A DNA stretch of 63,454 bases from Chloroflexota bacterium (GCA_034434735.1 DAOTYQ010000180.1:1-63454); one strand, 5' to 3'; numbered from the stretch's first letter, positions 7,377 through 61,783 are shown. The notes: generated from the letters alone by a model not told the origin. A program made the numbers and translations.

Positions 7377-10300
7377 GTGTTTCGACCCGTACCCAGCAAA
7401 CCCGACCTCATCGCCCAGGAGCACGAGATGCTCGCCCTCTGGCGGGAGCGCAAGACCTTCGAGCGCCTCCGGGCCCAGAACGCCGACGGCCCGCGCTGGA
7501 GCTTCCTCGACGGGCCGATCACGGCCAACAACCCGATGGGCGTCCATCATGCCTGGGGGCGGACCTACAAGGACCTCTTCCAGCGCTTCCGGGCCATGCT
7601 CGGTCACGCCCAGCGCTGGCAGAACGGCTTCGACTGCCAGGGTCTGTGGGTCGAGGTGAACGTGGAGCGCGAGCTCGGCTTCACCTCGAAGCGTGACATC
7701 GAGGCCTTCGGGATCGCCGAGTTCGTCTCCCTCTGCAAGCAGCGGGTGCTCACCTACGCCGCCCGCCAGACCGGGCAGAGCATCCGGCTCGGCTACTGGA
7801 TGGACTGGAACGACCCCGACGAGCTCCGTCGCCTGCGCGACCTTTTGGCCGAGGATCCGGCCCGGGTGATCACCGTCGAGGGCCCCCACGGCCCGGTCAC
7901 CGACACCGTCGAGATGATCGTCGGTCGCCTCGGGATGCCGGAGCTCGGCGGGAGCTACTTCACCTTCAGCAACGAGAACAACGATCTCATCTGGTGGTTT
8001 CTCAAGAGCTGCCATCAGAAGGGCTGGCTCTACAAGGGCCACGACACGATGCCCTGGTGCCCGCGCTGCGGGACCGGGATCAGCCAGATGGAGATGAACG
8101 AGGGCTACCAGGATCGGGACGACCCCGGGCTCACGGTCCGCTTCCCGCTCCTCGACCGGCCGGGGGAGGCGCTCCTGGTCTGGACGACGACGCCCTGGAC
8201 GCTCACCGCCAACGTCGCCGCGGCCGTCCACCCAGACCTCCCGTACGTCCTCGTCCGCGAGGGCGAGCGGCGCCTCTGGCTCGCTCGGGGCACCCTCGAG
8301 CGGGCCCTCGTCGGCGACTACGAGATCCTCGAGGAGCGACGGGGGGCCGAGCTGGTGGGCTGGCGGTACGCCGGGCCCTTCGACGACCTACCGGCCGTGG
8401 AGGCCACCTTCGCGGCGGCACCCGGCGGCCGCTACGAGCACCGGGTCGTCGCCTGGGACGAGGTCGGCGAGGACGAAGGGACCGGGATCGTCCACGTCGC
8501 CCCGGGCTGCGGCACCGAGGACTACACCCTCGGCAAGGCGCTCGGGCTGCCGATGCTCGCTCCCCTCGACGAGTTCGGCGTCTTCGTCGACGGCTACGGG
8601 TCGTTGAGCGGCCGGGACGTCCGCGAGGTGACCGAGCCGATCATCGAGCGGCTCCGGGCAACCGGCCGCTTCTACCGCCTCGAGGTCTATCGGCATCGCT
8701 ACCCGCACTGCTGGCGCTGCGGGACGCCGCTCGTCTTCCGGCTCGTCGACGAGTGGTACATCAGCATGGGCCCCGTCTACGACCAGCCGCGGGAGACGCT
8801 GACCCGGGAGCAGGTCGAGGCGTCGCTCCGCTACCAGATCATGGAGGTCGTCGACCAGATCCGCTGGATCCCGGGCTTCGGCTACGAGCGCGAGCTCGAC
8901 TGGCTCCGGAACATGCAGGACTGGATGATCAGCAAGAAGCGCTACTGGGGCCTCGCCCTGCCGATCTACGACTGCGCCAACTGCGGGACCTTCGAGGTCA
9001 TCGGCGGCCGCGACGAGCTCCGGGCCCGGGCCGTCGAGGGCTGGGAGCGCTTCGAGGGCCACACGCCCCACCGGCCGTGGGTCGACGCCGTGAAGATCGC
9101 CTGTCGCGGCTGCGGCCAACCGGTGGGCCGCATCCCCGACGTCGGCAATCCGTGGCTCGACGCCGGGATCGTCCCCTTCTCGACCCTCCACTACCGGATC
9201 GACCCCGAGTATTGGCGCCGCTGGTACCCGGCCGATTTCATCACCGAGAGCTTCCCGGGCCAGTTCCGGAACTGGTTCTACGCCCTCTTGGCGATGGGGA
9301 CCGTCCTGCGCCGCGAGCCGCCCTTCAAGACCATCTTCGGCTACGCCACCCTCCTCGGCGAGGACGGCCGACCGATGCACAAGAGCTGGGGCAACGCCAT
9401 CGAGTTCGACGAGGCGGCCGAACGGATGGGCGTCGACGTCATGCGCTGGCTCTTCGTCAAGCAGCGGCCGGAGGAGAACATCCTCTTCGGCTGGCATGCC
9501 GCCGACGAGGCGCGGCGGGAGCTCCTCGTCCTCTGGAACACGTACGCCTTCTTCGTCACCTACGCCCGTCTCGCCGGCTGGACCCCGGCGAGCCCGGCGC
9601 CTTCGGTCGGCGAACGGTCGCTCCTCGACCGCTGGATCCTGTCGCGGGCGGGCTGGCTCGCGGCGACCGTCGAGGACCGCCTCCGCGACTACGACGCCAT
9701 GCGCGCGGCGGCGGCCGTCGCCGAGTACATCGACGACCTCTCCACCTGGTACCTCCGCCTGAGCCGCGACCGGATGCGCCGCCGCGCCGACCCGACGGCC
9801 CAGGCGAGCGCCTTCGCGACCCTCCACGACGCCCTCGTCGTCGGAGCCCGGGTCGTGGCGCCGATGCTGCCGTTTCTGGCCGAGGCGATGTACCAGAATC
9901 TCGTCGTCGCCGTCGATCCGGCGCGCCCCGACAGCGTCCACCTCACCCGCTGGCCGACGGCCGAGGTCGCCGGGTACCGGGACGAGGCGCTCGAGGCGGC
10001 GATGGGCGTCGCCCGGAGGATCGTCGAGCTGGCCCGAACCCTCCGCGGGACGGCCGGGATCCGCGTCCGCCAGCCGCTCGCCCGCCTCTGGGTCGCCCTG
10101 CCCGATCGCGAGGTCCCCCACCTCGACGAGCTCCTCGAGCTCGTCCGCGACGAGGTGAACGTCAAGGCCGTCGAGCGGATCGCCGACGAGCACGAGCTCG
10201 TCGAGCGACGGGTCCGGCCGATCCTGCCGAAGATCGGGCCGAGGCTCGGGCCTCGGGTGCCGGAGGTCGTGGCGGCGATCAAGGCCGGCCATTTCGAGAT

Positions 10301-51607: not shown

Positions 51608-52837
51608 GTGAGTCGAGATTTCATCGGCGCCCTCCTGCAACTGAACGCCGAGAAGCAGGTCCCCCGCGAACAGCTCCTCCGAACCGTCGAGGAGGCGATC
51701 CAGGCTGCCTACCGGCGGGTCGACGGCGACGAGGACATCCACGTCCGGATCGATCCCGAGACGGGCAAGATCCGGGTCTTCCGGGCGCGCCTCGTCGTCG
51801 AGGTCGTCGAGGACCCGCAGACCCAGTTCACCCTCGAGGAGGCCCGCCGCCACGACCCGAACGCCAAGGTCGGCGACCTCGTGGAGTATCAGCAGCTCGA
51901 CCAAGCGTCCTTCGGCCGGATCCACGCCCAGACGGCCAAGCAGGTCGTCCTCCAGCGGCTCCGGGAAGCCGAGCGCGACGTCGTCTACGACCACTTCGCC
52001 AGCCGCGAGGGCGAGCTCATCAGCGGGACCGTCAAGCGGGTCGAACCGCGGGCCATCATCCTCGATCTCGGGCGCGATGTCGAGGGGATCCTGGCCACGA
52101 CCGAGCAGTCGCCGATCGAGCACTACCGGATCGGCCAGACCGTCAAGGCGTACGTCCTCGAGGTCCGGCGCTCACCGCGGGGGCCCCAGGTCTTTCTGTC
52201 GCGGACCCACAAGGGCTTCCTGCGCCGCCTCTTCGAGCTCGAGGTCCCCGAGATCCACGCCGGGACCGTCGAGATCAAGGCCATCGCCCGTGAGCCCGGC
52301 AGTCGGAGCAAGGTCGCCGTGGCGAGCCGTCAGGAGGGGCTCGATCCGGTCGGGGCGACGGTCGGCCAGCGGGGAGCGCGCGTCCAGGCCGTCGTCGCCG
52401 AGCTCGGCGGCGAGAAGATCGACGTCATCCCCTGGTCGGAGGACCCGGCGGCCTTCGTTGCCAACGCCCTCTCCCCGGCCCAGGTCCTGTCCGTCGACAT
52501 CGACCAGGAGCGACGGATCGCGACGGTGACGGTCCCGGAACGGATGCTGTCGCTGGCCATCGGTCGGGAGGGCCAGAACGCCAGGCTCGCCGCCCGACTC
52601 ACCGGCTGGCGGATCGACATCCGGAGCGACGTCGCCCACGCCGAACCCGCCGCCAAGCCCGACGCGGCGAAGCCGGCGGCCGACCCGGTGGACCCGGCGA
52701 GCGATCCCGGTGGGCCCGAGGCGCCGGCGGCCGCTTCGGCGGCCGCGACCGCCGCGACGGCGACCGAGACGGCGGCCCGGCCGAAGCGCGCCGCCCGGCG
52801 GACGGCCAAGGCGGCGGACGGGGAGGGATCGTCGTAG
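51608..52837 (+). CDS. nusA: transcription termination/antitermination factor NusA
   Basis: GTG 51608, 7 nt after GGAGG. S1 domain GELISGTVKRVE. KH domains REPGSRSKVAV...DPVGATVGQRGARV and LAIGREGQNARLAARLTGWRIDI. Ala/Pro-rich tail. Confidence 0.95.
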   Translation: MSRDFIGALLQLNAEKQVPREQLLRTVEEAIQAAYRRVDGDEDIHVRIDPETGKIRVFRARLVVEVVEDPQTQFTLEEARRHDPNAKVGDLVEYQQLDQASFGRIHAQTAKQVVLQRLREAERDVVYDHFASREGELISGTVKRVEPRAIILDLGRDVEGILATTEQSPIEHYRIGQTVKAYVLEVRRSPRGPQVFLSRTHKGFLRRLFELEVPEIHAGTVEIKAIAREPGSRSKVAVASRQEGLDPVGATVGQRGARVQAVVAELGGEKIDVIPWSEDPAAFVANALSPAQVLSVDIDQERRIATVTVPERMLSLAIGREGQNARLAARLTGWRIDIRSDVAHAEPAAKPDAAKPAADPVDPASDPGGPEAPAAASAAATAATATETAARPKRAARRTAKAADGEGSS

Positions 52838-53223
52838 CCCGGGCCGTCGGCGCCGGCCGGGCTCGCCCCGTCCCGACCCGGACCTGCGTCGCCTGTCGGA
52901 CGGCCCGACCGAAGCGGGAGCTCGTCCGCGTCGTCCGGACACCCGAGGGTTCCGTCGTCGTCGATCCGAGCGGCAAGCGGAGCGGACGGGGGGCGTATCT
53001 CTGCCCGACGCCGGCGTGCCTCGCCCTCGCCAGGCGGCGGGGCGGCCTCGCCAGGGCCCTCGGCGTGCCGATCCCGGCCGAGCTCCTCGACGGACTCGAG
53101 CAGGGGATCGGGGGGCCGGCGGCCGGGGCCGAAGCGGCGGCGCCGACGGGCCCGTCCGGCAGGGTTGGCGCCGATGTCCGAGAATCAGAGTCGATGAACG
53201 GAGGACAGCGTGGCACGAAGTAG
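52828..53223 (+). CDS. YlxR/DUF448 family RNA-binding protein (start codon unresolved)
   Basis: Own translation of frame 1: ...[48 protein letters not shown]... Classic YlxR motifs between nusA and infB. No ATG/GTG/TTG upstream of the motif, so it is absent from the ORF track. ATC 52828 is only a candidate. Stop is TAG 53221-53223. Confidence 0.7.
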
Positions 53224-55108
53224 GAGCGGAACGCGCGGTCGTCGAGGGCCGCGGAAACCGCCGCGACGAGACCAGCCCTTCGCCGGGGCGCCGGTCGGCG
53301 TCGCGGAGCCGCGGGAGCGGGGCGCCATCGAGCTGCCGTCGACGATCACCGTCGCCGACCTGGCCGGCCAGCTCGGGGTGAACGTCGCGGACGTCATCCG
53401 CGAGCTCATCAAGAACGGGATCTTCGCGACCATCAACCAGCTCATCGACCGCGACACCGCCTCCCTCGTCGCTGCGGAGCTCGGCTTCGAGGTCGCCGAG
53501 CCGGTCGCCGCCGGCGGCAACGGAACCGCCGAGTCGGCCGTCGAGGCGGCGCCGGCCGAGGCGGCCAGGGAGCGCCTCTTCGAGGAAGAGGATCCGAGCC
53601 TTCTCCAGCCACGGGCGCCCATCGTCACCGTCATGGGCCACGTCGACCACGGTAAGACGAGTCTCCTCGACGCCATCCGCAAGACCGCCGTCGCTGCCGG
53701 CGAACGGGGCGGCATCACCCAGCACATCGGGGCCTCCGAGGTCGTCAAGGACGATCGGCGGATCGTCTTCCTCGACACGCCGGGCCACGAGGCCTTCACC
53801 GCGATGCGGGCCCGCGGGGCGTAGGTGACCGACATCGCCATCATCGTCGTCGCCGCCGACGACGGGGTCATGCCCCAGACCGTCGAGGCGATCAGCCACG
53901 CCCGGGCGGCCAAGGTCCCCATCGTCATCGCCCTCAACAAGATCGACAAGCCCGACGCCAACCCGGAGCGCGTCAAGACCGAGCTCTCCGAGCACGGCGT
54001 CGTCATCGAGGAGTACGGCGGCGACGTCCCCCTCGTCCCCGTCTCGGCCAAGACCGGCCAGGGCCTCGACGACCTCCTCGAGGTCGTCCTCCTCGTCGCC
54101 GACCTGGCCGAGCTCCGGGCCAACCCGAAGCGTCCCGCCGTCGGAACCGTCATCGAAGCCCAGCTCGACCGGGGCCGAGGTCCGGTAGCGACGGTCATCG
54201 TCCAGACGGGCACCCTCCGCGTCGGGGACATCGTCGTGGCCGGTCAGACCCTGGGCCGGGTCCGGGCCCTCGAGAACGCCAACGGCAAGCGGGTCCCGAA
54301 GGCGGGGCCGGCCACGGCGGTCGTCGTGCTCGGCCTCTCCGACGTGCCGGAGGCCGGCGACATCCTCCAGGTCGTGCCCGACGAGAAGACGGCGCGGGCC
54401 ATGGTCGAGGAACGACGCGCGGCGGCGAGCCGGGCCGGGGAGACCCAGACCCGGGCGACCCTCGAAGACCTCTACCGACAGTTCCAGGCCGGCCAGGCGA
54501 AGGAACTTCGCCTCATCGTCAAGGCCGACGTCGCCGGTTCGCTGGAGGCGATCCGCCATGCCCTCGAGCAGCTTCCCGCCGATGACGTCCGGATCAACAT
54601 CCTCCACGAGGCGGCCGGCGAGATCACCGACAACGACATCATGCTCGCCGCGGCCTCGAATGCCATCGTCATCGGTTTCAACACGCGGATCAGCGAGACG
54701 GCCCGCCGGTCGGCCCAGGAGGCGGGCGTCGACGTCCGGCTCTACGACATCATCTACCAGCTCACCGACGACATCGAGCGGGCGCTCAAGGGCATGCTCG
54801 AGCCCGAGGTCGTCGAGGTCATCGAGGGCCGAGCCGAGGTTCGCCAGATCTTCCGGGTCGGGAAGGGGACCGTCGTCGCCGGCTGCTACGTGACCGAGGG
54901 TCGGATCGTCCGCGGCGGCGGGGCGCGGATCTGGCGGGGCGGCAAGGTCGTCGCTACCGACCGGATCGAGTCGCTCCGGCGCTTCCGCGACGACGTCCGG
55001 GAGGTCGCCGCCGGGTTCGAGTGCGGGATCGGGCTGGCCTCCTTCGGCGACTTCGTCGAGGGCGACATCATCGAGTGCGTCACGAGCCAGACGGTCCAGC
55101 GGAGCTAG
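53210..55108 (+). CDS. infB: translation initiation factor IF-2, reading frame interrupted by an in-frame TAG at 53822-53824
   Basis: GTG 53210 after [23 protein letters not shown] (G1), [43 protein letters not shown] (G4). The two track ORFs, 53210..53824 and 53825..55108, are contiguous and in frame. Confidence 0.9.
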
Positions 55109-55169
55109 CCGTGGGAGACGGGCGGCGACGCGGCGGGCGGCCGGGCCCGGCCGACGCCCGAGGGCGTTG

Positions 55170-55745
55170 ATGCCGACGTACCGCCGGCGGCGGATCGACG
55201 AGCTCCTCCGGGAGACGATCGGCGAGTTGCTGACCCGGGAGGTCGTCGATCCGCGGATCGGCTTCGCCACCGTCACCGAGGTCGAGACGACGCCGGACCT
55301 CGGCCACGCCCGGGTCTGGGTGAGCGTCATCGGCGAGACGGCCGAGCGGGCGGCGACCATCGCCGCCCTCGAGCGGGCGATGGTCTTCGTCCGGCGGGAG
55401 CTCGGGCACCGGCTCCATCTCCGTCGGATCCCGGAGCTCCAGGTTCGGCTGGACGAGTCGGCCGACCGGGGGACGCGGGTCCTTCGGCTCCTCGCCGACA
55501 TTGAGGCCGGCCGCGAGCCGACGCCGCTCCCCGAAGGCGAGTCGCTTCCCCAGCCCGTGCCACGGCGGGCCGAACCGGTCGACGCGACCGCGGCCCCGGG
55601 ATCCGACGAGGCCGAGCCCGCCGTGGCCGGGCGGCGGGGGCGTCGCCCGAGCCGATCGGGATCCGGCACGGATCGCCGGAGCGGGCCCGTGCACGGCGGC
55701 CGGCCGACACCGGGACGCGGAGTGCGGCGCCAACACGAGCGATGA
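55170..55745 (+). CDS. rbfA: ribosome-binding factor A with Arg-rich C-terminal extension
   Basis: RRRRIDELLRETIGELLTREVVDPRIGFATVTEVETTPDLGHARVWVSV...LRRIPELQ. Confidence 0.9.
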   Translation: MPTYRRRRIDELLRETIGELLTREVVDPRIGFATVTEVETTPDLGHARVWVSVIGETAERAATIAALERAMVFVRRELGHRLHLRRIPELQVRLDESADRGTRVLRLLADIEAGREPTPLPEGESLPQPVPRRAEPVDATAAPGSDEAEPAVAGRRGRRPSRSGSGTDRRSGPVHGGRPTPGRGVRRQHER

Positions 55746-56770
55746 CGGCCGATCTCATCGACCTTCGCCCCTTTGCCGAGGCCGTCCCCGAGGCGACCAT
55801 CGCCGCCCTTCGCCGGGCCCGGTCGGTCCTCGCCGTCGGCCACGAACACCCCGACGCAGATACGCTCGGGGCGAGCCTCGCCGTCGTCCGGATCGTCGAG
55901 TGGCTCGGTGGGCGCGGGACGCCGGTCTGCGCCGATCCCGTGCCGGAGCTCTATCACTTCCTGCCCGGCATGGAGCGCTTCCGGACCGACCCGGAGCCGA
56001 ACCTCGACTACGACCTCCTCGTCCTCTCCGATTGTGCGAGCCTCGACCGGATCGGGCCGCTCCTCGAGCGAGAGCGGGCCCGGATCGAGGGGCTGCCCCG
56101 ACTCGTCCTCGACCATCACCTGAGCAACGAGGCAGCCGGCCCTGCCGACTGGGTCGACCCGACGGCCGCGGCGACCTGCGAGCTCGTCGGCCTCCTCGCG
56201 GCCCGGCTCGGCGTGCCGTTCGATCTCGACGACGGCGCCCTGGCCAGCATCTTGCTGGCCGGGATCGTCATGGACACGGCGACCTTCGCCCATCCGAACG
56301 CGACACCGCGGACCCTCGCCGTCGCCGCCGCCCTCCTCGCCGCCGGGGCTCCGCTCTCCGAGATCTCGCGGCGCCTCTACCGGACGAAGCCGGATAGCCA
56401 GCTCCGCCTCTTCGGTCGGGTCCTCGACCGTCTCGAGACGACGGCAGGCGGTCGGGTCATCCACTCCACCCTCTACGCGGCGGATCTGGCGGCGACGGGG
56501 GCGAACCCGGCCCACTCCGAGGGCCTCGTCGACCTCCTCAGCCAGTCGGCGTCGGCCGAGGTGGCGATCCTCTTCAAGGAGCAGGGAGACCGGACTCGGA
56601 TCTCGGTCCGGACGAAGCCGGGCGGGCTGGACGCCACGGTCCTGACCGGCCGCTTCGGCGGTGGCGGTCACGCCCGGGCCGCCGGGGCGACCATCGAGGC
56701 GCCCGTCGACGTCGCCCGGGAGCGCGTCCTCGCGGAGGCCGTCGCCCTCGCCGAGGCGGTTCGCCGATGA
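55742..56770 (+). CDS. nrnA: DHH/DHHA1 phosphoesterase (NrnA-like oligoribonuclease/pAp phosphatase)
   Basis: LAVGHEHPDADTLGAS...LVLSDCAS...LDHH...DTATF...DHHA1 GGGGHARAAG. ATGA overlaps on both sides. Confidence 0.85.
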   Translation: MTADLIDLRPFAEAVPEATIAALRRARSVLAVGHEHPDADTLGASLAVVRIVEWLGGRGTPVCADPVPELYHFLPGMERFRTDPEPNLDYDLLVLSDCASLDRIGPLLERERARIEGLPRLVLDHHLSNEAAGPADWVDPTAAATCELVGLLAARLGVPFDLDDGALASILLAGIVMDTATFAHPNATPRTLAVAAALLAAGAPLSEISRRLYRTKPDSQLRLFGRVLDRLETTAGGRVIHSTLYAADLAATGANPAHSEGLVDLLSQSASAEVAILFKEQGDRTRISVRTKPGGLDATVLTGRFGGGGHARAAGATIEAPVDVARERVLAEAVALAEAVRR

Positions 56771-57777
56771 CGATGCCCGAGGACAGGCTGCCGATCGGCT
56801 CCCGGGGCGGGGCGTCGCCGAAGCGGCCCGACGGCGGTCTCGACGGCATCCTCGTCGTGGACAAGCCGGCCGGGCCGACCTCCCACGACGTCGTCGCCCT
56901 CGTCCGGCGGCTGGCGGCGACCCGCCGGGTCGGCCACGGCGGAACCCTCGACCCCTTCGCCACCGGCGTCCTCGTCCTCTTCCTCGGCCGGGCGACCCGG
57001 CTTGCTGAGTACCACCTCCGGGCACCGAAGCGGTACCGGGCGACGATCTGCTTCGGGGCGAGCTCGACGACCGACGATCTGGAAGGCGAGATGACGCCGG
57101 CCCAAGGCCCGCCACCGGATCGCGCGGCGGTGGAGGCGGCCCTCGACGAGTTCCGGGGGCCGATCCTCCAGGTCCCGCCGACCTACAGCGCGGTCAAGGT
57201 CCGGGGCCGGCGAGCCTACGCCCTCGCCCGACGCGGCCACGAGCCCGAACTCCAGCCACGGCCCGTCCGGATCGACGTCCTCGAGCTCGTCGACTGGGAC
57301 GCCAGCGACCCCACCCGTCCGATCGCCGTCCTCGACGTCCTCTGCTCGGCCGGGATGTACGTCCGGGCCCTGGCCCGGGACCTCGGCCGGGCCGTCGGCA
57401 ACGCCGCCTATCTCGGCGCTCTGACCCGGACCGGGAGCGGCGCCTTCCGGCTCGAGATGGCACACGACCTCGACGCGATCCGGTCGGCCGCGGCCGCCGG
57501 TCCCGAGGGCCTCCGTGAGCTCCTCCTGCCGATCGATGCCGGCCTCGAGGCGATGCCGGCGCTTCCGCTCACACCGGCCGAGGTCGCCGCCGTCGCCCGG
57601 GGCCAGTTCGTCCGGCCGCTGGCTCGGGCGTCGCTCCCGCCGGGACCGCGGGTCGGCCCGGTTCGCCTCGTCGGCCCGAGCGGCCTCGTCGCCATCGCCG
57701 AGTGGGAGGGGCCCCGACTCGTCCCCCATAAGGTCCTCGTCGATCCGCCGGCCGCAGCCGTCCGGCGGCCGGGCTGA
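56767..57777 (+). CDS. truB: tRNA pseudouridine(55) synthase TruB
   Basis: GILVVDKPAGPTSHDVV...VGHGGTLDPFATGVLVL...QVPPTYSAVKVRG(R)RAY. Confidence 0.93.
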   Translation: MTMPEDRLPIGSRGGASPKRPDGGLDGILVVDKPAGPTSHDVVALVRRLAATRRVGHGGTLDPFATGVLVLFLGRATRLAEYHLRAPKRYRATICFGASSTTDDLEGEMTPAQGPPPDRAAVEAALDEFRGPILQVPPTYSAVKVRGRRAYALARRGHEPELQPRPVRIDVLELVDWDASDPTRPIAVLDVLCSAGMYVRALARDLGRAVGNAAYLGALTRTGSGAFRLEMAHDLDAIRSAAAAGPEGLRELLLPIDAGLEAMPALPLTPAEVAAVARGQFVRPLARASLPPGPRVGPVRLVGPSGLVAIAEWEGPRLVPHKVLVDPPAAAVRRPG

Positions 57778-58773: not shown

Positions 58774-59043
58774 GTGCCGCTCGCGCGGGAACAGAAGCAG
58801 CAGGTCATCAACGAGTTCGCCCGCTCTGCCGGCGACACCGGCTCGGTCGAGGTCCAGATCGCGCTCTTGACGGAGCGGATCCGCGGCTTGACCGAGCACC
58901 TGAAGCGCTTCCCGAAGGATCACCACTCGCGTCGCGGCCTCCTCAAGCTCGTGGGTCAGCGCCGGCGCTTCCTCGCGTACCTCGTGAAGAACGATAGCGC
59001 CCGCTACCGGGCCGTCGTCGCACGGCTCGGTCTGCGGCGCTAG
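58774..59043 (+). CDS. rpsO: 30S ribosomal protein S15
   Basis: GTG 58774 after [23 protein letters not shown](R)GLTEHLK...[18 protein letters not shown](F)LAYL. Confidence 0.95.
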
Positions 59044-59054
59044 CGTCGCCCTCG

Positions 59055-59079
59055 AGACCTCGGGTCGAGCCCGAGGTCT
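59055..59079 (+). promoter_or_regulatory. rpsO-pnp intergenic stem-loop (terminator/processing-site candidate)
   Basis: AGACCTCGGG-tcgag-CCCGAGGTCT, a perfect 10-bp stem 12 nt after the rpsO stop, followed by TCTCGT (weak T-tract). Confidence 0.5.
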
Positions 59080-59137
59080 TCTCGTACCGGCCGCGGCCCG
59101 GCCCACGCGCAACCAGGCCGACTCCTCCTCCACGACG

Positions 59138-61741
59138 ATGGAGGACCCACCACCCGTGTCAACGACATTCGAAACGACCATCGGCGGCCGGACGCTCACG
59201 ATCGAGACCGGCAGGATGGCCCTCCTCGCCGACGGGTCGGTCACCGTCCGCTACGGCGACACCGTCGTCCTCGGGACGGCGAACCGGTCCGACCCCCGGC
59301 CCGGACTCGACTTCTTCCCCCTGACCGTCGACTTCGAGGAGCGGATGTACGCCGCCGGGAAGATCCCGGGCGGCTTCATCAAGCGCGAATCGCGACCCTC
59401 GGAGGGTGCCATCCTTGCGGCCCGGCTCACCGACCGACCGATCCGACCGCTCTTCCCCGAGGGCTACCGAGACGACGTCCAGGTCGTCATCACGGTCCTC
59501 TCGACCGATCAGGAGAACGATCCCGACATCCTCGGCACGATCGCCGCCTCGGCCGCCCTCTCGATTAGCGAGATCCCCTTCCTCGGCCCGGTCGGGGCAG
59601 TCCGGGTTGGTCGGATCGGCGGCGAGTTCGTCGTCAACCCGACCATCAGTGAGCTCGAGCACTCGGAGATCGACCTCGTCGTCTCCGGGACCCGGGACGC
59701 GATCATGATGGTCGAGGCGGGGGCGAGGATCGTCCCCGAGGACGTCATGGCCGAGGCGATCCTCTTCGGGCACCGCGCCCTCCAGCCCCTCATCGACGTC
59801 CAGGAGGAGCTCGTCCGGGCCGTCGGCAAGCCGAAGCGGATCCCCTACCTGGAGCCGGGGACCGGCTCGATCCTCACCTTCGTCGACGCCGTCGCCGCCG
59901 ACCGGGAGTTCGTCGTCGTCGACGTGGAGACGACGGGGACCGACCCGAGCCTCCACGACATCGTCGAGATCGGCGCCGTCCGGGTCCGGCAGGGCGAGAT
60001 CGTCGAGCGCTTTGCGACCCTCGTCGACCCGGGCCGGCCGATCGTCGGTGTCCAGCTCCACGGCCTCACCGACGCCGACGTCCGCGGCGCGCCGTCGCCG
60101 CGGGAGGCGGCCGAGCGGTTCCTCGCCTTCGCCGGGGACGCCCTCATCGTCGGCCACAACGTCGGCTTCGACATCGCCTTCCTCGAGACCGCCCTGGGCG
60201 ACGGTCGCCGGTTCGAGTACGGTCGCTACCTCGACACCCTCGTCATCGCCCGGGAGGCGTTCCCCGGGGCGCCAGAGACGTACAAGCTCGGCGATCTCGC
60301 TGCCTTCTTCGGGCTGGCGGCCGGGGGCCACCGCGCCCTCCCCGACGCCGAGGTGACGGCCCAGATCCTCCTCCGCCTGGCGGCGGATCTGCCGCCCCGG
60401 ATCGCCCGGCTCCGCGACGGGATCGCCGCGGCGATCCGCGCCCACCGGACGGGCGGCGACCCGGCGACCCTCCTCGAGGCGGCTCGCCGCGAGGCGCGGG
60501 TCGGCAAGAACCTCTTCGCCGCCGTCCAGAAGCAGGTCGTCCGCGAGCTCACCCTCAACGAGGGGATCCGGATGGACGGGCGGGCCCCCGACGAGATCCG
60601 GCCGATCTCCATCGAGGTCGGTCTCCTTCCACGGGCTCACGGTTCTGCCCTCTTCACCCGCGGCCAGACCCAGGCCCTCACCATCGCCACCCTCGGTCCG
60701 TCCTCGGACGTCCAGCGGATCGACACGATCAGCCCCGAGACCGAGAAGCGGTACCTCCACCACTACAACTTCCCGCCGTACAGCACCGGCGAGAACAAGC
60801 CGCTCCGCGGCCCGAGCCGGCGCGACATCGGCCACGGCAACCTGGCCGAGCGGGCCCTCCTGCCGGTCCTGCCGTCCCAGGACGAGTTCCCGTACGTCAT
60901 CCGGCTCGTCTCGGAGATCGTGACCTCCAACGGCTCGACCTCCATGGCCTCGACCTGCGGCTCGAGCCTCGCCCTCATGGATGCCGGCGTCCCGATCAAG
61001 GCGCCCGTCGCCGGAGCGGCGATGGGGCTCATGACCGATCCAGCCAGCGGTCGCTTCGTCGTCCTGACCGACATCCTCGGCAAGGAGGACGCCTTCGGCG
61101 ACATGGACTTCAAGGTCGCCGGGACCCGGGAGGGGATCACCGCCGTCCAGATGGACATCAAGGTTCGCGGGATCGGCGAGGCGATCATCCGGGAGGGACT
61201 CGCCCGGGCCCATGCCGCCCGGCAGTTCATCCTCGACAAGATGGTGGCCGTCATGCCGGCGCCGCGGACCGAGATGAGCCGCTTTGCACCGCGGATCATC
61301 ACCATCAAGATCAACCCGGAGAAGATCCGCGACATCATCGGCAAGGGCGGGGCGACGATCCGCAAGATCCAGGACGAGACCGGGACCGAGATCAACGTCC
61401 AAGACGACGGCACCGTCGAGATCGCCGCGGTCAACGCCGAGAACAGCCGGAAGGCGATCCAGTGGATCGAGTCGCTGACCCGCGAGGTCGAGGTCGGTGG
61501 CCTCTACCTCGGCAAGGTGACCCGGATCATGAGCTTCGGTGCCTTCGTCGAGATCCTGCCCGGCAAGGAGGGGCTCGTCCGGATCAGCGAGCTCGCCGAC
61601 TACCACGTCCCCTCGGTGGAGGACGTCGTCTCGGTCGGCGACGAGATCATGGTCGTCGTCACCGAGATCGACCGCCAGGGCCGGATCAACCTGTCCCGCA
61701 AGGCGGCGATGCAGCGGCACCTCGCCCGCTCGGCGCGCTGA
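59138..61741 (+). CDS. pnp: polynucleotide phosphorylase with an inserted DEDDh exonuclease domain (867 aa)
   Basis: Two RNase PH domains (GRMALLADGSV...FPLTVDFEERMYAAGKIPGGF(I)KRE; ...LPRAHGSALFTRGQTQAL...SNGSTSMASTCGSSLALMDAGVP...FKVAGT), KH (GKGGATIRKI) and S1 (GKVTRIMSFGAFVEI). About 180 extra residues lie between PH1 and the helical linker. Start is ATG 59138 or GTG 59156. Confidence 0.93.
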   Translation: MEDPPPVSTTFETTIGGRTLTIETGRMALLADGSVTVRYGDTVVLGTANRSDPRPGLDFFPLTVDFEERMYAAGKIPGGFIKRESRPSEGAILAARLTDRPIRPLFPEGYRDDVQVVITVLSTDQENDPDILGTIAASAALSISEIPFLGPVGAVRVGRIGGEFVVNPTISELEHSEIDLVVSGTRDAIMMVEAGARIVPEDVMAEAILFGHRALQPLIDVQEELVRAVGKPKRIPYLEPGTGSILTFVDAVAADREFVVVDVETTGTDPSLHDIVEIGAVRVRQGEIVERFATLVDPGRPIVGVQLHGLTDADVRGAPSPREAAERFLAFAGDALIVGHNVGFDIAFLETALGDGRRFEYGRYLDTLVIAREAFPGAPETYKLGDLAAFFGLAAGGHRALPDAEVTAQILLRLAADLPPRIARLRDGIAAAIRAHRTGGDPATLLEAARREARVGKNLFAAVQKQVVRELTLNEGIRMDGRAPDEIRPISIEVGLLPRAHGSALFTRGQTQALTIATLGPSSDVQRIDTISPETEKRYLHHYNFPPYSTGENKPLRGPSRRDIGHGNLAERALLPVLPSQDEFPYVIRLVSEIVTSNGSTSMASTCGSSLALMDAGVPIKAPVAGAAMGLMTDPASGRFVVLTDILGKEDAFGDMDFKVAGTREGITAVQMDIKVRGIGEAIIREGLARAHAARQFILDKMVAVMPAPRTEMSRFAPRIITIKINPEKIRDIIGKGGATIRKIQDETGTEINVQDDGTVEIAAVNAENSRKAIQWIESLTREVEVGGLYLGKVTRIMSFGAFVEILPGKEGLVRISELADYHVPSVEDVVSVGDEIMVVVTEIDRQGRINLSRKAAMQRHLARSAR
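59858..60397 (+). other. DnaQ/PolC-type DEDDh 3'-5' exonuclease domain embedded in pnp (residues ~241-420)
   Basis: ExoI FVVVDVETTG (D262 = nt 59921-59923, E264). ExoII LIVGHNVGFDIAFL (D345). ExoIII HRALPDAEVTAQI (H398 = nt 60329-60331, D403). Continuous with the pnp frame on both sides. Confidence 0.8.
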
Positions 61742-61747
61742 GTCGCG

Positions 61748-61783
61748 CCGCGAGATCCGGACGAGCACCGCGAGATCCGGACG
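61748..61783. repeat. 2 x 16-nt direct repeat CCGCGAGATCCGGACG, 20-nt phase
   Basis: Copies at 61748-61763 and 61768-61783, plus a partial third GAGATCGG at about 61784-61791. Located between the pnp stop and the asd promoter candidate. Confidence 0.6.

Follow-up and report, generated by a model that had tools for sequence, protein, structure and literature searches.

A polynucleotide phosphorylase with a DEDDh exonuclease domain nested in its helical domain in Limnocylindria-type Chloroflexota

Polynucleotide phosphorylase (PNPase) is among the most conserved enzymes of RNA decay, and to our knowledge its five-domain plan is regarded as constant all the way from bacteria to human mitochondria. 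The question raised by the stretch of DNA analysed here, 63,454 nucleotides from a Chloroflexota bacterium (GCA_034434735.1, DAOTYQ010000180.1:1-63454; hereafter the window), is whether its pnp gene (59138..61741, + strand, as for all pnp features below) departs from this plan and, if so, what the departure would do. A first-pass annotation made from the sequence alone had described the gene as one frame with an exonuclease inserted in it. The frame was confirmed; it runs for 867 codons without interruption, and an alternative GTG start at 59156 yields the 861-aa product P0121, which is the window's own pnp product as present in the NCBI protein database.

A complete DEDDh domain inside the all-alpha domain of PNPase

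A complete DEDDh domain sits inside the all-alpha linker of the pnp product. Between the two RNase PH cores, residues 259-411 matched the profile of the Pfam family RNase_T (PF00929) from end to end (positions 1-164 of 164; 100 bits, cut-off 24; E = 2.6e-28), so that the exonuclease proposed by the first-pass annotation was borne out by a profile search. The remainder of the product generated Pfam hits on RNase_PH (twice), RNase_PH_C, KH_1 and S1, in the order first PH core (PH1), all-alpha linker, second PH core (PH2), KH and S1, the last three following normally, as had been annotated; the all-alpha domain is present but divided by the insert. PH1 (aa 8-240, 59159..59857; RNase_PH and RNase_PH_C) includes the GGFIKRE channel loop, and its alignment to E. 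coli PNPase starts at residue 11. PH2 (aa 483-715, 60584..61282), assigned from Pfam and from alignment to the E. coli and 5yjj PNPases, holds the phosphorolytic active site (NGSTSMAS, GDMDFK), and its phosphate-binding NGS(S/T)SMA and metal-binding GDMDFK motifs align to E. coli PNPase. It is followed by the KH domain (aa 721-778, 61298..61471; PF00013, E = 2.9e-12) and the S1 domain (aa 784-855, 61487..61702; PF00575, E = 3.1e-19). The whole protein scored 951 bits against the PNPase equivalog model TIGR03591 (cut-off 525) in two stretches around the insert, the second of which pairs aa 451-856 with profile positions 284-688. Judged from these profiles and motifs, the pnp product is a genuine PNPase that has kept its phosphorolytic active site.

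The full protein aligned to E. coli PNPase in two blocks, residues 15-253 to 11-250 and residues 452-860 to 290-695. When aa 255-414 (160 residues) were deleted in silico and the resulting 707-aa protein was searched again, it gave an unbroken match to TIGR03591 (958.7 bits; profile 2-688 of 689), and its alignments to E. coli PNPase (11-695) and 5yjj (19-709) were likewise continuous. Thus, an otherwise canonical PNPase received precisely one additional domain, about 160 residues long (nt 59900-60379). The first-pass annotation had recognised the insertion but drawn its borders slightly too wide, at about 180 residues (aa 241-420, 59858-60397); the minimal insert is aa 255-414 (59900..60379), as defined by PF00929, the deletion and the sequence match, structural model and fold neighbours described below. 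A domain insert was not seen in any of the solved PNPases matched by sequence or structure search.

A monomer model of the pnp product was generated with AlphaFold2 from a 51-sequence alignment. Its PNPase core superposed on solved PNPases with a target TM-score (TMt) of up to 0.89, and the predicted local distance difference test score (pLDDT) was 80-97 over aa 241-480. The order of elements in this region, a helix at 243-253, an alpha/beta exonuclease fold, a helix at 400-438 and helices at 442-453 and 457-475, places the insertion point between helix 1 and helix 2 of the all-alpha domain. Helix 1 (aa 243-253, 59864..59896) directly precedes the insertion point and aligns with the start of the E. 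coli alpha-domain, and the remainder of the all-alpha domain (aa 415-482, 60380..60583) comprises the long helix that comes from the last exonuclease helix and two more helices, with a partial PF03726 match at aa 457-482 and an alignment to 8zaw from residue 415. Helix 400-438 is unbroken in the model, the last exonuclease helix running on into the linker, and the insert and helical domain modelled alone formed a compact unit (pLDDT 94.8, predicted TM-score 0.91). Given the short connectors and this continuation into alpha-domain helix 2, the exonuclease domains are probably held rigidly on the helical domain.

All three exonuclease motifs are present in the insert: ExoI with D262-V-E264 (59921..59929, in FVVVDVETTG), ExoII with D345 (60170..60172, in GHNVGFD), and ExoIII with H398-x4-D403 (60329..60346, HRALPD), which defines the DEDDh subtype. 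These motifs aligned column for column with the exonuclease domain of Thermotoga maritima PolC (2p1j; E = 1.5e-27, about 38% identity), and the five residues named in the first-pass annotation (D262, E264, D345, H398 and D403) were found at the positions it gave, in the catalytic columns of 2p1j. The best NCBIfam model for the insert alone was that of PRK07883-type DEDD exonuclease proteins (NF005906, 152 bits, E = 1.6e-44), and the insert scored 122 bits with DinG, 114 bits with PolC and 81 bits with proteobacterial DnaQ. The subfamily_domain model TIGR00573 (dnaq) gave 72.9-77.1 bits, above its cut-off of 71.5, and the full-length PolC, DinG and PRK07883 families, with cut-offs of 454-1043 bits against scores of 100-152, were matched by their exonuclease domain only. 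In the Protein Data Bank (PDB), the insert matched PolC exonuclease, DinG, CRISPR-associated DnaQ, Cas2-DEDDh, epsilon and ExoX chains; no RNase T or Orn chain was found at E <= 1e-3 in that search, and the RNase T and Orn models were not among the 25 best of 31 NCBIfam matches. The fold was RNase H-like alpha/beta, with S. aureus DinG, PolC, a DnaQ domain and epsilon at the top ranks of Foldseek (root-mean-square deviation 2.3-2.4 A; TMt 0.77-0.81 for the single-domain DnaQ and epsilon targets) and RNase T at rank 20 or lower (21-23% identity). Orthology of the insert to RNase T or Orn was ruled out by both the sequence and the fold ranking, and as these two are distant while PolC, DinG and epsilon are near, the Pfam label 'RNase_T' is merely a family name. 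Of the DnaQ / PolC-exo / RNase T fold claimed by the first-pass annotation, the superfamily fold and the DnaQ/PolC type held, without orthology to RNase T. Sequence and fold place the insert in the epsilon/PolC/DinG subgroup. A PRK07883-type protein from Gaiellales (L079) was 47.5% identical to the insert over the domain, and the PRK07883-type family is a plausible donor lineage.

Distribution and conservation of the nested gene

A frame of this kind would also result from a chimeric assembly, or from an artefact of gene calling in which pnp and a dnaQ-like gene are joined, and many database entries are indeed fragments named 'exonuclease domain-containing protein, partial', with the gene in pieces in some long-read metagenome-assembled genomes (MAGs). 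One genome per GTDB species was scanned with residues 1-300 of the window protein, which cover the junction from PH1 through the exonuclease domain to the linker. About 70 species-level genomes, from many studies and assemblers, matched the whole junction, and nearly all were labelled Limnocylindria, Limnocylindrales or Chloroflexota. In over 50 cases, a single high-scoring segment pair spanned residues ~2-864 of the window protein, in one frame and with identical junctions; recurrence of the junctions in more than 50 independent assemblies means that the gene is not a chimera. Full-length proteins of about 860-875 aa were found by the hundred in NCBI, JGI, ENA and Logan, the splits in long-read assemblies proved to be indel errors in an otherwise collinear gene, and base composition is continuous over the junctions. 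The artefact is thus refuted.

The best 120 protein matches to the window protein were about 860 aa long and 78-100% identical to it. A second, deeper subclade, about 63% identical overall and 43-45% across the junction region, supplied at least another 120 matches of about 870 aa, and all full-length homologs of both subclades carried PF00929 together with PH, KH and S1. Clustering at 90% identity placed the window protein with 16 members (NCBI, JGI, ENA and Logan), and clustering at 50% reduced the family to one full-length representative plus fragments. One sequence of the former cluster, P0245 (GIW20187.1, KatS3mg065_0483), with at least 90% identity, bears the annotation 'hypothetical protein' and originates from a 'KatS3' Chloroflexota MAG. 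Within one bacterial class, the architecture is common.

No independent lineage combining PNPase with a DEDDh domain was found in other phyla among the best 150 matches in an exhaustive search of cluster representatives. P0261, P0275, P0279, P0281, P0288 and P0304 were considered as independent fusions and rejected, as a domain scan identified them as tandem-DEDDh/GIY-YIG, DinG, PolC, BRCT-linked or DEDDh-only proteins. Unusual architectures with two or three DEDDh domains occur among these closest non-PNPase relatives of the insert: P0261 (1045 aa) has three tandem RNase_T/DEDDh domains, then GIY-YIG and UVR motifs, P0275 and P0288 have tandem RNase_T/DEDDh domains with a BRCT domain at the end, and P0304 has tandem RNase_T/DEDDh domains. 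Short contigs (L042, L054, L062 and L068; proteins P0218, P0247 and P0429) labelled Patescibacteria, Verrucomicrobiia, Polarisedimenticolia, Deferrimicrobiaceae, Binatia or Zixibacteria carried insert-bearing pnp 60-80% identical to the Limnocylindria genes; these labels likely reflect mis-binning.

A first homolog search had returned only proteins of 525 aa or less, as if PH1-exo and PH2-KH-S1 were separate genes. A real gene split was rejected, as L001 and L002 show long-read indel or frameshift errors and full-length proteins are abundant; the fragments arose at contig ends or from indels introduced in long-read assembly. Single-base indels break pnp and neighbours such as infB and truB in several long-read MAGs (L001 at 7500-7620 and L002 at ~7480-7770; also L010, L020, L033, L066 and L070), and a pnp broken in this way gives rise to many spurious database proteins of 180-525 aa under the 'partial' name quoted above. 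Degenerate or inactive lineages suggested by partial RNase_T matches (P0280, P0286, P0263, P0271 and P0321) were likewise rejected, being frameshift-corrupted fragments with Arg/Pro/Ser-rich out-of-frame stretches.

Conservation was examined in 53 species-level full-length pnp genes. The catalytic residues D262, E264, D345, H398 and D403 were invariant in all 53, as were the flanking T265, T266, H340, F344, R399 and A404 and the PNPase motifs GGFIKRE, NGSTSMAS and GDMDFK, and both active sites are retained in the deep subclade. Apparent exceptions to the catalytic set, seen in the fragment set, were all out-of-frame sequence. The ratio of nonsynonymous to synonymous substitutions (dN/dS) in the exonuclease domain was 0.03-0.25 for the 15 closest pairs (Nei-Gojobori), about twice the rate of the PH cores, and clearly points to purifying selection on the insert. 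These figures bear on the view that the insert is a pseudo-nuclease, that is, an inert structural, RNA-binding or regulatory module that gates the side pore or recruits partners, for example. A part in modulating access to the active site has been suggested for the helical domain (PMC2723993), and the faster evolution of the insert relative to the PH cores would suit such a role. However, the catalytic and flanking residues are unchanged despite domain divergence of up to 61%, and dN/dS is well under 1. Pseudo-enzymes normally lose their catalytic residues. Because the catalytic set is invariant, a non-catalytic role is very unlikely.

The insert is 157-161 aa long in the 53 genes; the window at its C-terminal junction shows no length variation in any of them, and that at the N-terminal junction differs by one residue in 5 of the 53. 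Distances in the exonuclease domain and in the core co-vary (Spearman 0.72, slope about 2). Insert length, fixed junctions and co-varying distances together fit a single ancient insertion that was inherited vertically. The insert is slightly richer in G+C than its flanks (0.73-0.74 versus 0.68-0.71), and this comparison gave no evidence of recent transfer.

Candidate functions and the surrounding locus

Our preferred reading, held with moderate confidence, is that the pnp product is a bifunctional PNPase, the orthologous enzyme with an ancestral DEDDh insertion, which would be both a phosphorolytic and a hydrolytic 3'-5' exonuclease, most likely with a role in RNA trimming. An ancestor of the sampled Limnocylindria-type Chloroflexota would have gained, in its single orthologous PNPase, an epsilon/PolC/DinG-type DEDDh domain between helices 1 and 2. 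The trimer would then carry three Mg-dependent hydrolytic sites, releasing nucleoside monophosphates (NMPs) independently of phosphate, beside three phosphorolytic sites that release nucleoside diphosphates (NDPs). The helical domain of PNPase lies on the torus face opposite KH/S1 and contributes to a pore through which the active site can be reached by a second path (Nurmohamed et al. 2009, PMC2723993), and this pore was proposed to control access of NDPs and phosphate (PMC2723993). The exonuclease domains would accordingly be expected on the ring face opposite the KH/S1 capture of RNA, beside the side pore to the PH2 active site. Reversible phosphorolysis would thereby be supplemented with phosphate-independent, irreversible 3'-5' trimming, which might act on single-stranded RNA 3' ends that are poor substrates for PNPase, or when phosphate is in short supply. 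Candidate targets are short limit oligonucleotides, ends near structure, and unprocessed or defective rRNA, with single-stranded DNA (ssDNA) also possible.

Several points weigh against this reading. We infer the activity and the substrate of the exonuclease domain from conservation, and its position relative to the channel and pore comes from the literature position of the helical domain, the model being that of a monomer. An NrnA-like nanoRNase is encoded in the same operon, which weakens the need of the insert for clearing oligonucleotides. The nearest relatives of the insert, moreover, are mainly DNA exonucleases, and the best family, sequence and fold matches (PRK07883-type at 152 bits, the PolC domain 2p1j at E = 1.5e-27, DinG, DNA polymerase III epsilon, ExoX and Cas2-DEDDh) are an argument for a serious rival, in which the embedded domain works mainly on DNA, as a robust, Mg-dependent 3'-5' exonuclease of ssDNA that would serve recombinational repair or the processing of ends. 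Such a role would extend the weak Mn-dependent DNase activity and the repair role reported for bacterial PNPases, and work in B. subtilis and E. coli links PNPase to DNA repair (PMC2709576, PMC3241651, PMC5379764). DinG of B. subtilis, which degrades ssDNA and the RNA strand of hybrids, prefers ssDNA over single-stranded RNA (ssRNA) with Mg (PMC12525004). On the other hand, DinG of S. aureus degrades both ssDNA and ssRNA in the 3'-5' direction (PMC3270479), and Listeria DinG clears unprocessed rRNA in vivo (PMC12774634); together, the RNA activities of these DinG proteins mean that the epsilon/PolC/DinG subgroup is not confined to DNA. The host of the insert is a housekeeping enzyme of RNA decay at the rpsO-pnp locus with its RNA-capturing KH and S1 domains intact, and no DNA-repair genes are linked to the locus. 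A primarily DNA-directed function is regarded as possible but less likely.

A more elaborate form of the bifunctional PNPase is exosome-like coupling, in which three DEDDh domains on the exit face would take 3' ends delivered through the central channel or the side pore, with a switch between phosphorolysis and hydrolysis set by phosphate supply or substrate structure. If true, one bacterial polypeptide would make up a convergent 'exosome' of PH ring, S1/KH cap and hydrolytic DEDD nuclease, and the switch would set reversible, NDP-yielding decay against irreversible, NMP-yielding and phosphate-independent decay. We consider this coupling speculative and rather improbable.

The pnp gene lies in a conserved, standard housekeeping arrangement, dxr-rseP-ispG-nusA-infB-rbfA-DHH/DHHA1-truB-ribF-rpsO-pnp-asd. 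Directly upstream is rpsO (58774..59043, +), encoding ribosomal protein S15, which marks the orthologous rpsO-pnp locus; of 67 related loci, 62 likewise have it upstream in the same orientation. The DHH/DHHA1 (NrnA-like) gene (55742..56770, +) is located between rbfA and truB in the nusA-infB operon, about 2.4 kb upstream of pnp, where the first-pass annotation had noted an NrnA-type gene, so that a nanoRNase candidate would be co-transcribed near the predicted bifunctional PNPase. The gene is also present in L002 and was found in 33 of 73 related loci, a count limited by the many loci that end before its position. Within the window, neither a paralog (a further DEDDh or PH-domain gene) nor an Rfam match was found. 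Between rpsO and pnp, 11 nt past the rpsO stop, a hairpin (59054..59080, +) has a 12-bp stem (10 Watson-Crick and 2 G-U pairs) and a 3-nt loop, and a second small stem overlaps the rpsO stop codon. The 121-nt rpsO-pnp region was weakly more stable than its shuffles (z = -1.8). The hairpin may be an rpsO terminator or a pnp leader or autoregulatory structure; the E. coli pnp leader, for comparison, contains a hairpin that is cleaved by RNase III. Long antisense open reading frames of 869 aa opposite pnp (59159-61768, -) and 1647 aa opposite infB to truB (52172-57115, -) were treated as spurious and typical of DNA with 70-75% G+C.

Comparison with known systems

A full-text literature search whose coverage leaves out most subscription journals turned up no account of a DEDD exonuclease embedded in a PNPase; in this respect the first-pass annotation, which knew of none, stood. 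The sequences are already public in their hundreds, under automatic names such as 'polyribonucleotide nucleotidyltransferase' or 'DNA polymerase III epsilon subunit family exonuclease', and the architecture is uncharacterised in the literature found. Both component families are well known; the novelty lies in the nesting of one within the other and in the fact that this combination is fixed throughout a bacterial class (Candidatus Limnocylindria, phylum Chloroflexota). The carriers are apparently abundant in soil and freshwater metagenomes. The five-domain plan has here a class-wide exception, maintained under selection: the helical domain, the least understood part of PNPase, houses another 3'-5' exonuclease of different chemistry. 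The insert amounts to a natural experiment on the function of the helical domain and side pore, is a one-polypeptide model of how phosphorolytic and hydrolytic decay can be coupled, a theme otherwise known from the multi-subunit eukaryotic exosome, and provides a test case for whether epsilon/PolC-type 'DNA' exonucleases are readily redeployed on RNA. In addition, it is a clean clade marker in sequence data that could serve contamination checks, and it reveals annotation problems.

Compared with canonical bacterial PNPases (E. coli Pnp, TIGR03591, and the structures 7ogk, 3cdi, 5yjj and 1e3p), the window protein shares the domain order, the phosphate- and metal-binding motifs, the GGF(x)KRE loop and the rpsO-pnp locus, and aligns end to end once the insert is removed; it differs in the 160-residue DEDDh domain between helices 1 and 2 of the all-alpha domain. 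The insert itself shares its DEDDh motifs with the PolC exonuclease domain (T. maritima 2p1j; 9qpc), the best PDB sequence match and a top fold match, although the host in the window is an RNA phosphorylase, with no polymerase, PHP or clamp-binding context. In PolC, the exonuclease domain is itself an insertion within the PHP domain, and this fold therefore tolerates nesting, a precedent for an inserted module. The N-terminal exonuclease of Firmicute DinG (S. aureus 8zef/9ii8, B. subtilis and L. monocytogenes) is the top structural neighbour and a strong family match, and is likewise a DEDDh domain fused to a nucleic-acid-handling machine. For DinG, 3'-5' activity on ssDNA and ssRNA and a role in rRNA quality control are documented. 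Its domain is, however, an N-terminal fusion to a superfamily 2 (SF2) helicase scaffold rather than an internal insertion, and identity in the structural alignment is about 27-29%. PRK07883-type proteins, with an N-terminal DEDD exonuclease and a GIY-YIG/UvrC-like C-terminus, are alike in the exonuclease domain only; the window protein has no GIY-YIG or UVR part, and its score is far under the full-length cut-off of 495 bits. RNase T and Orn share the superfamily fold, the DEDDh chemistry and, through Pfam, the family name 'RNase_T', but the insert is orthologous to neither.

The eukaryotic RNA exosome, finally, comprises the PH-like Exo9 ring, an S1/KH cap, Rrp44/Dis3 on the face opposite the cap, and the DEDD-family Rrp6. 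Like the window PNPase, by analogy only, it joins a PH ring and S1/KH cap to hydrolytic 3'-5' exonucleases, including a DEDD-superfamily enzyme, but the arrangements are not homologous. The exosome ring is catalytically dead and its nucleases are separate subunits, whereas the ring encoded in the window appears from its motifs to be active, with the DEDDh domain covalently nested within it.

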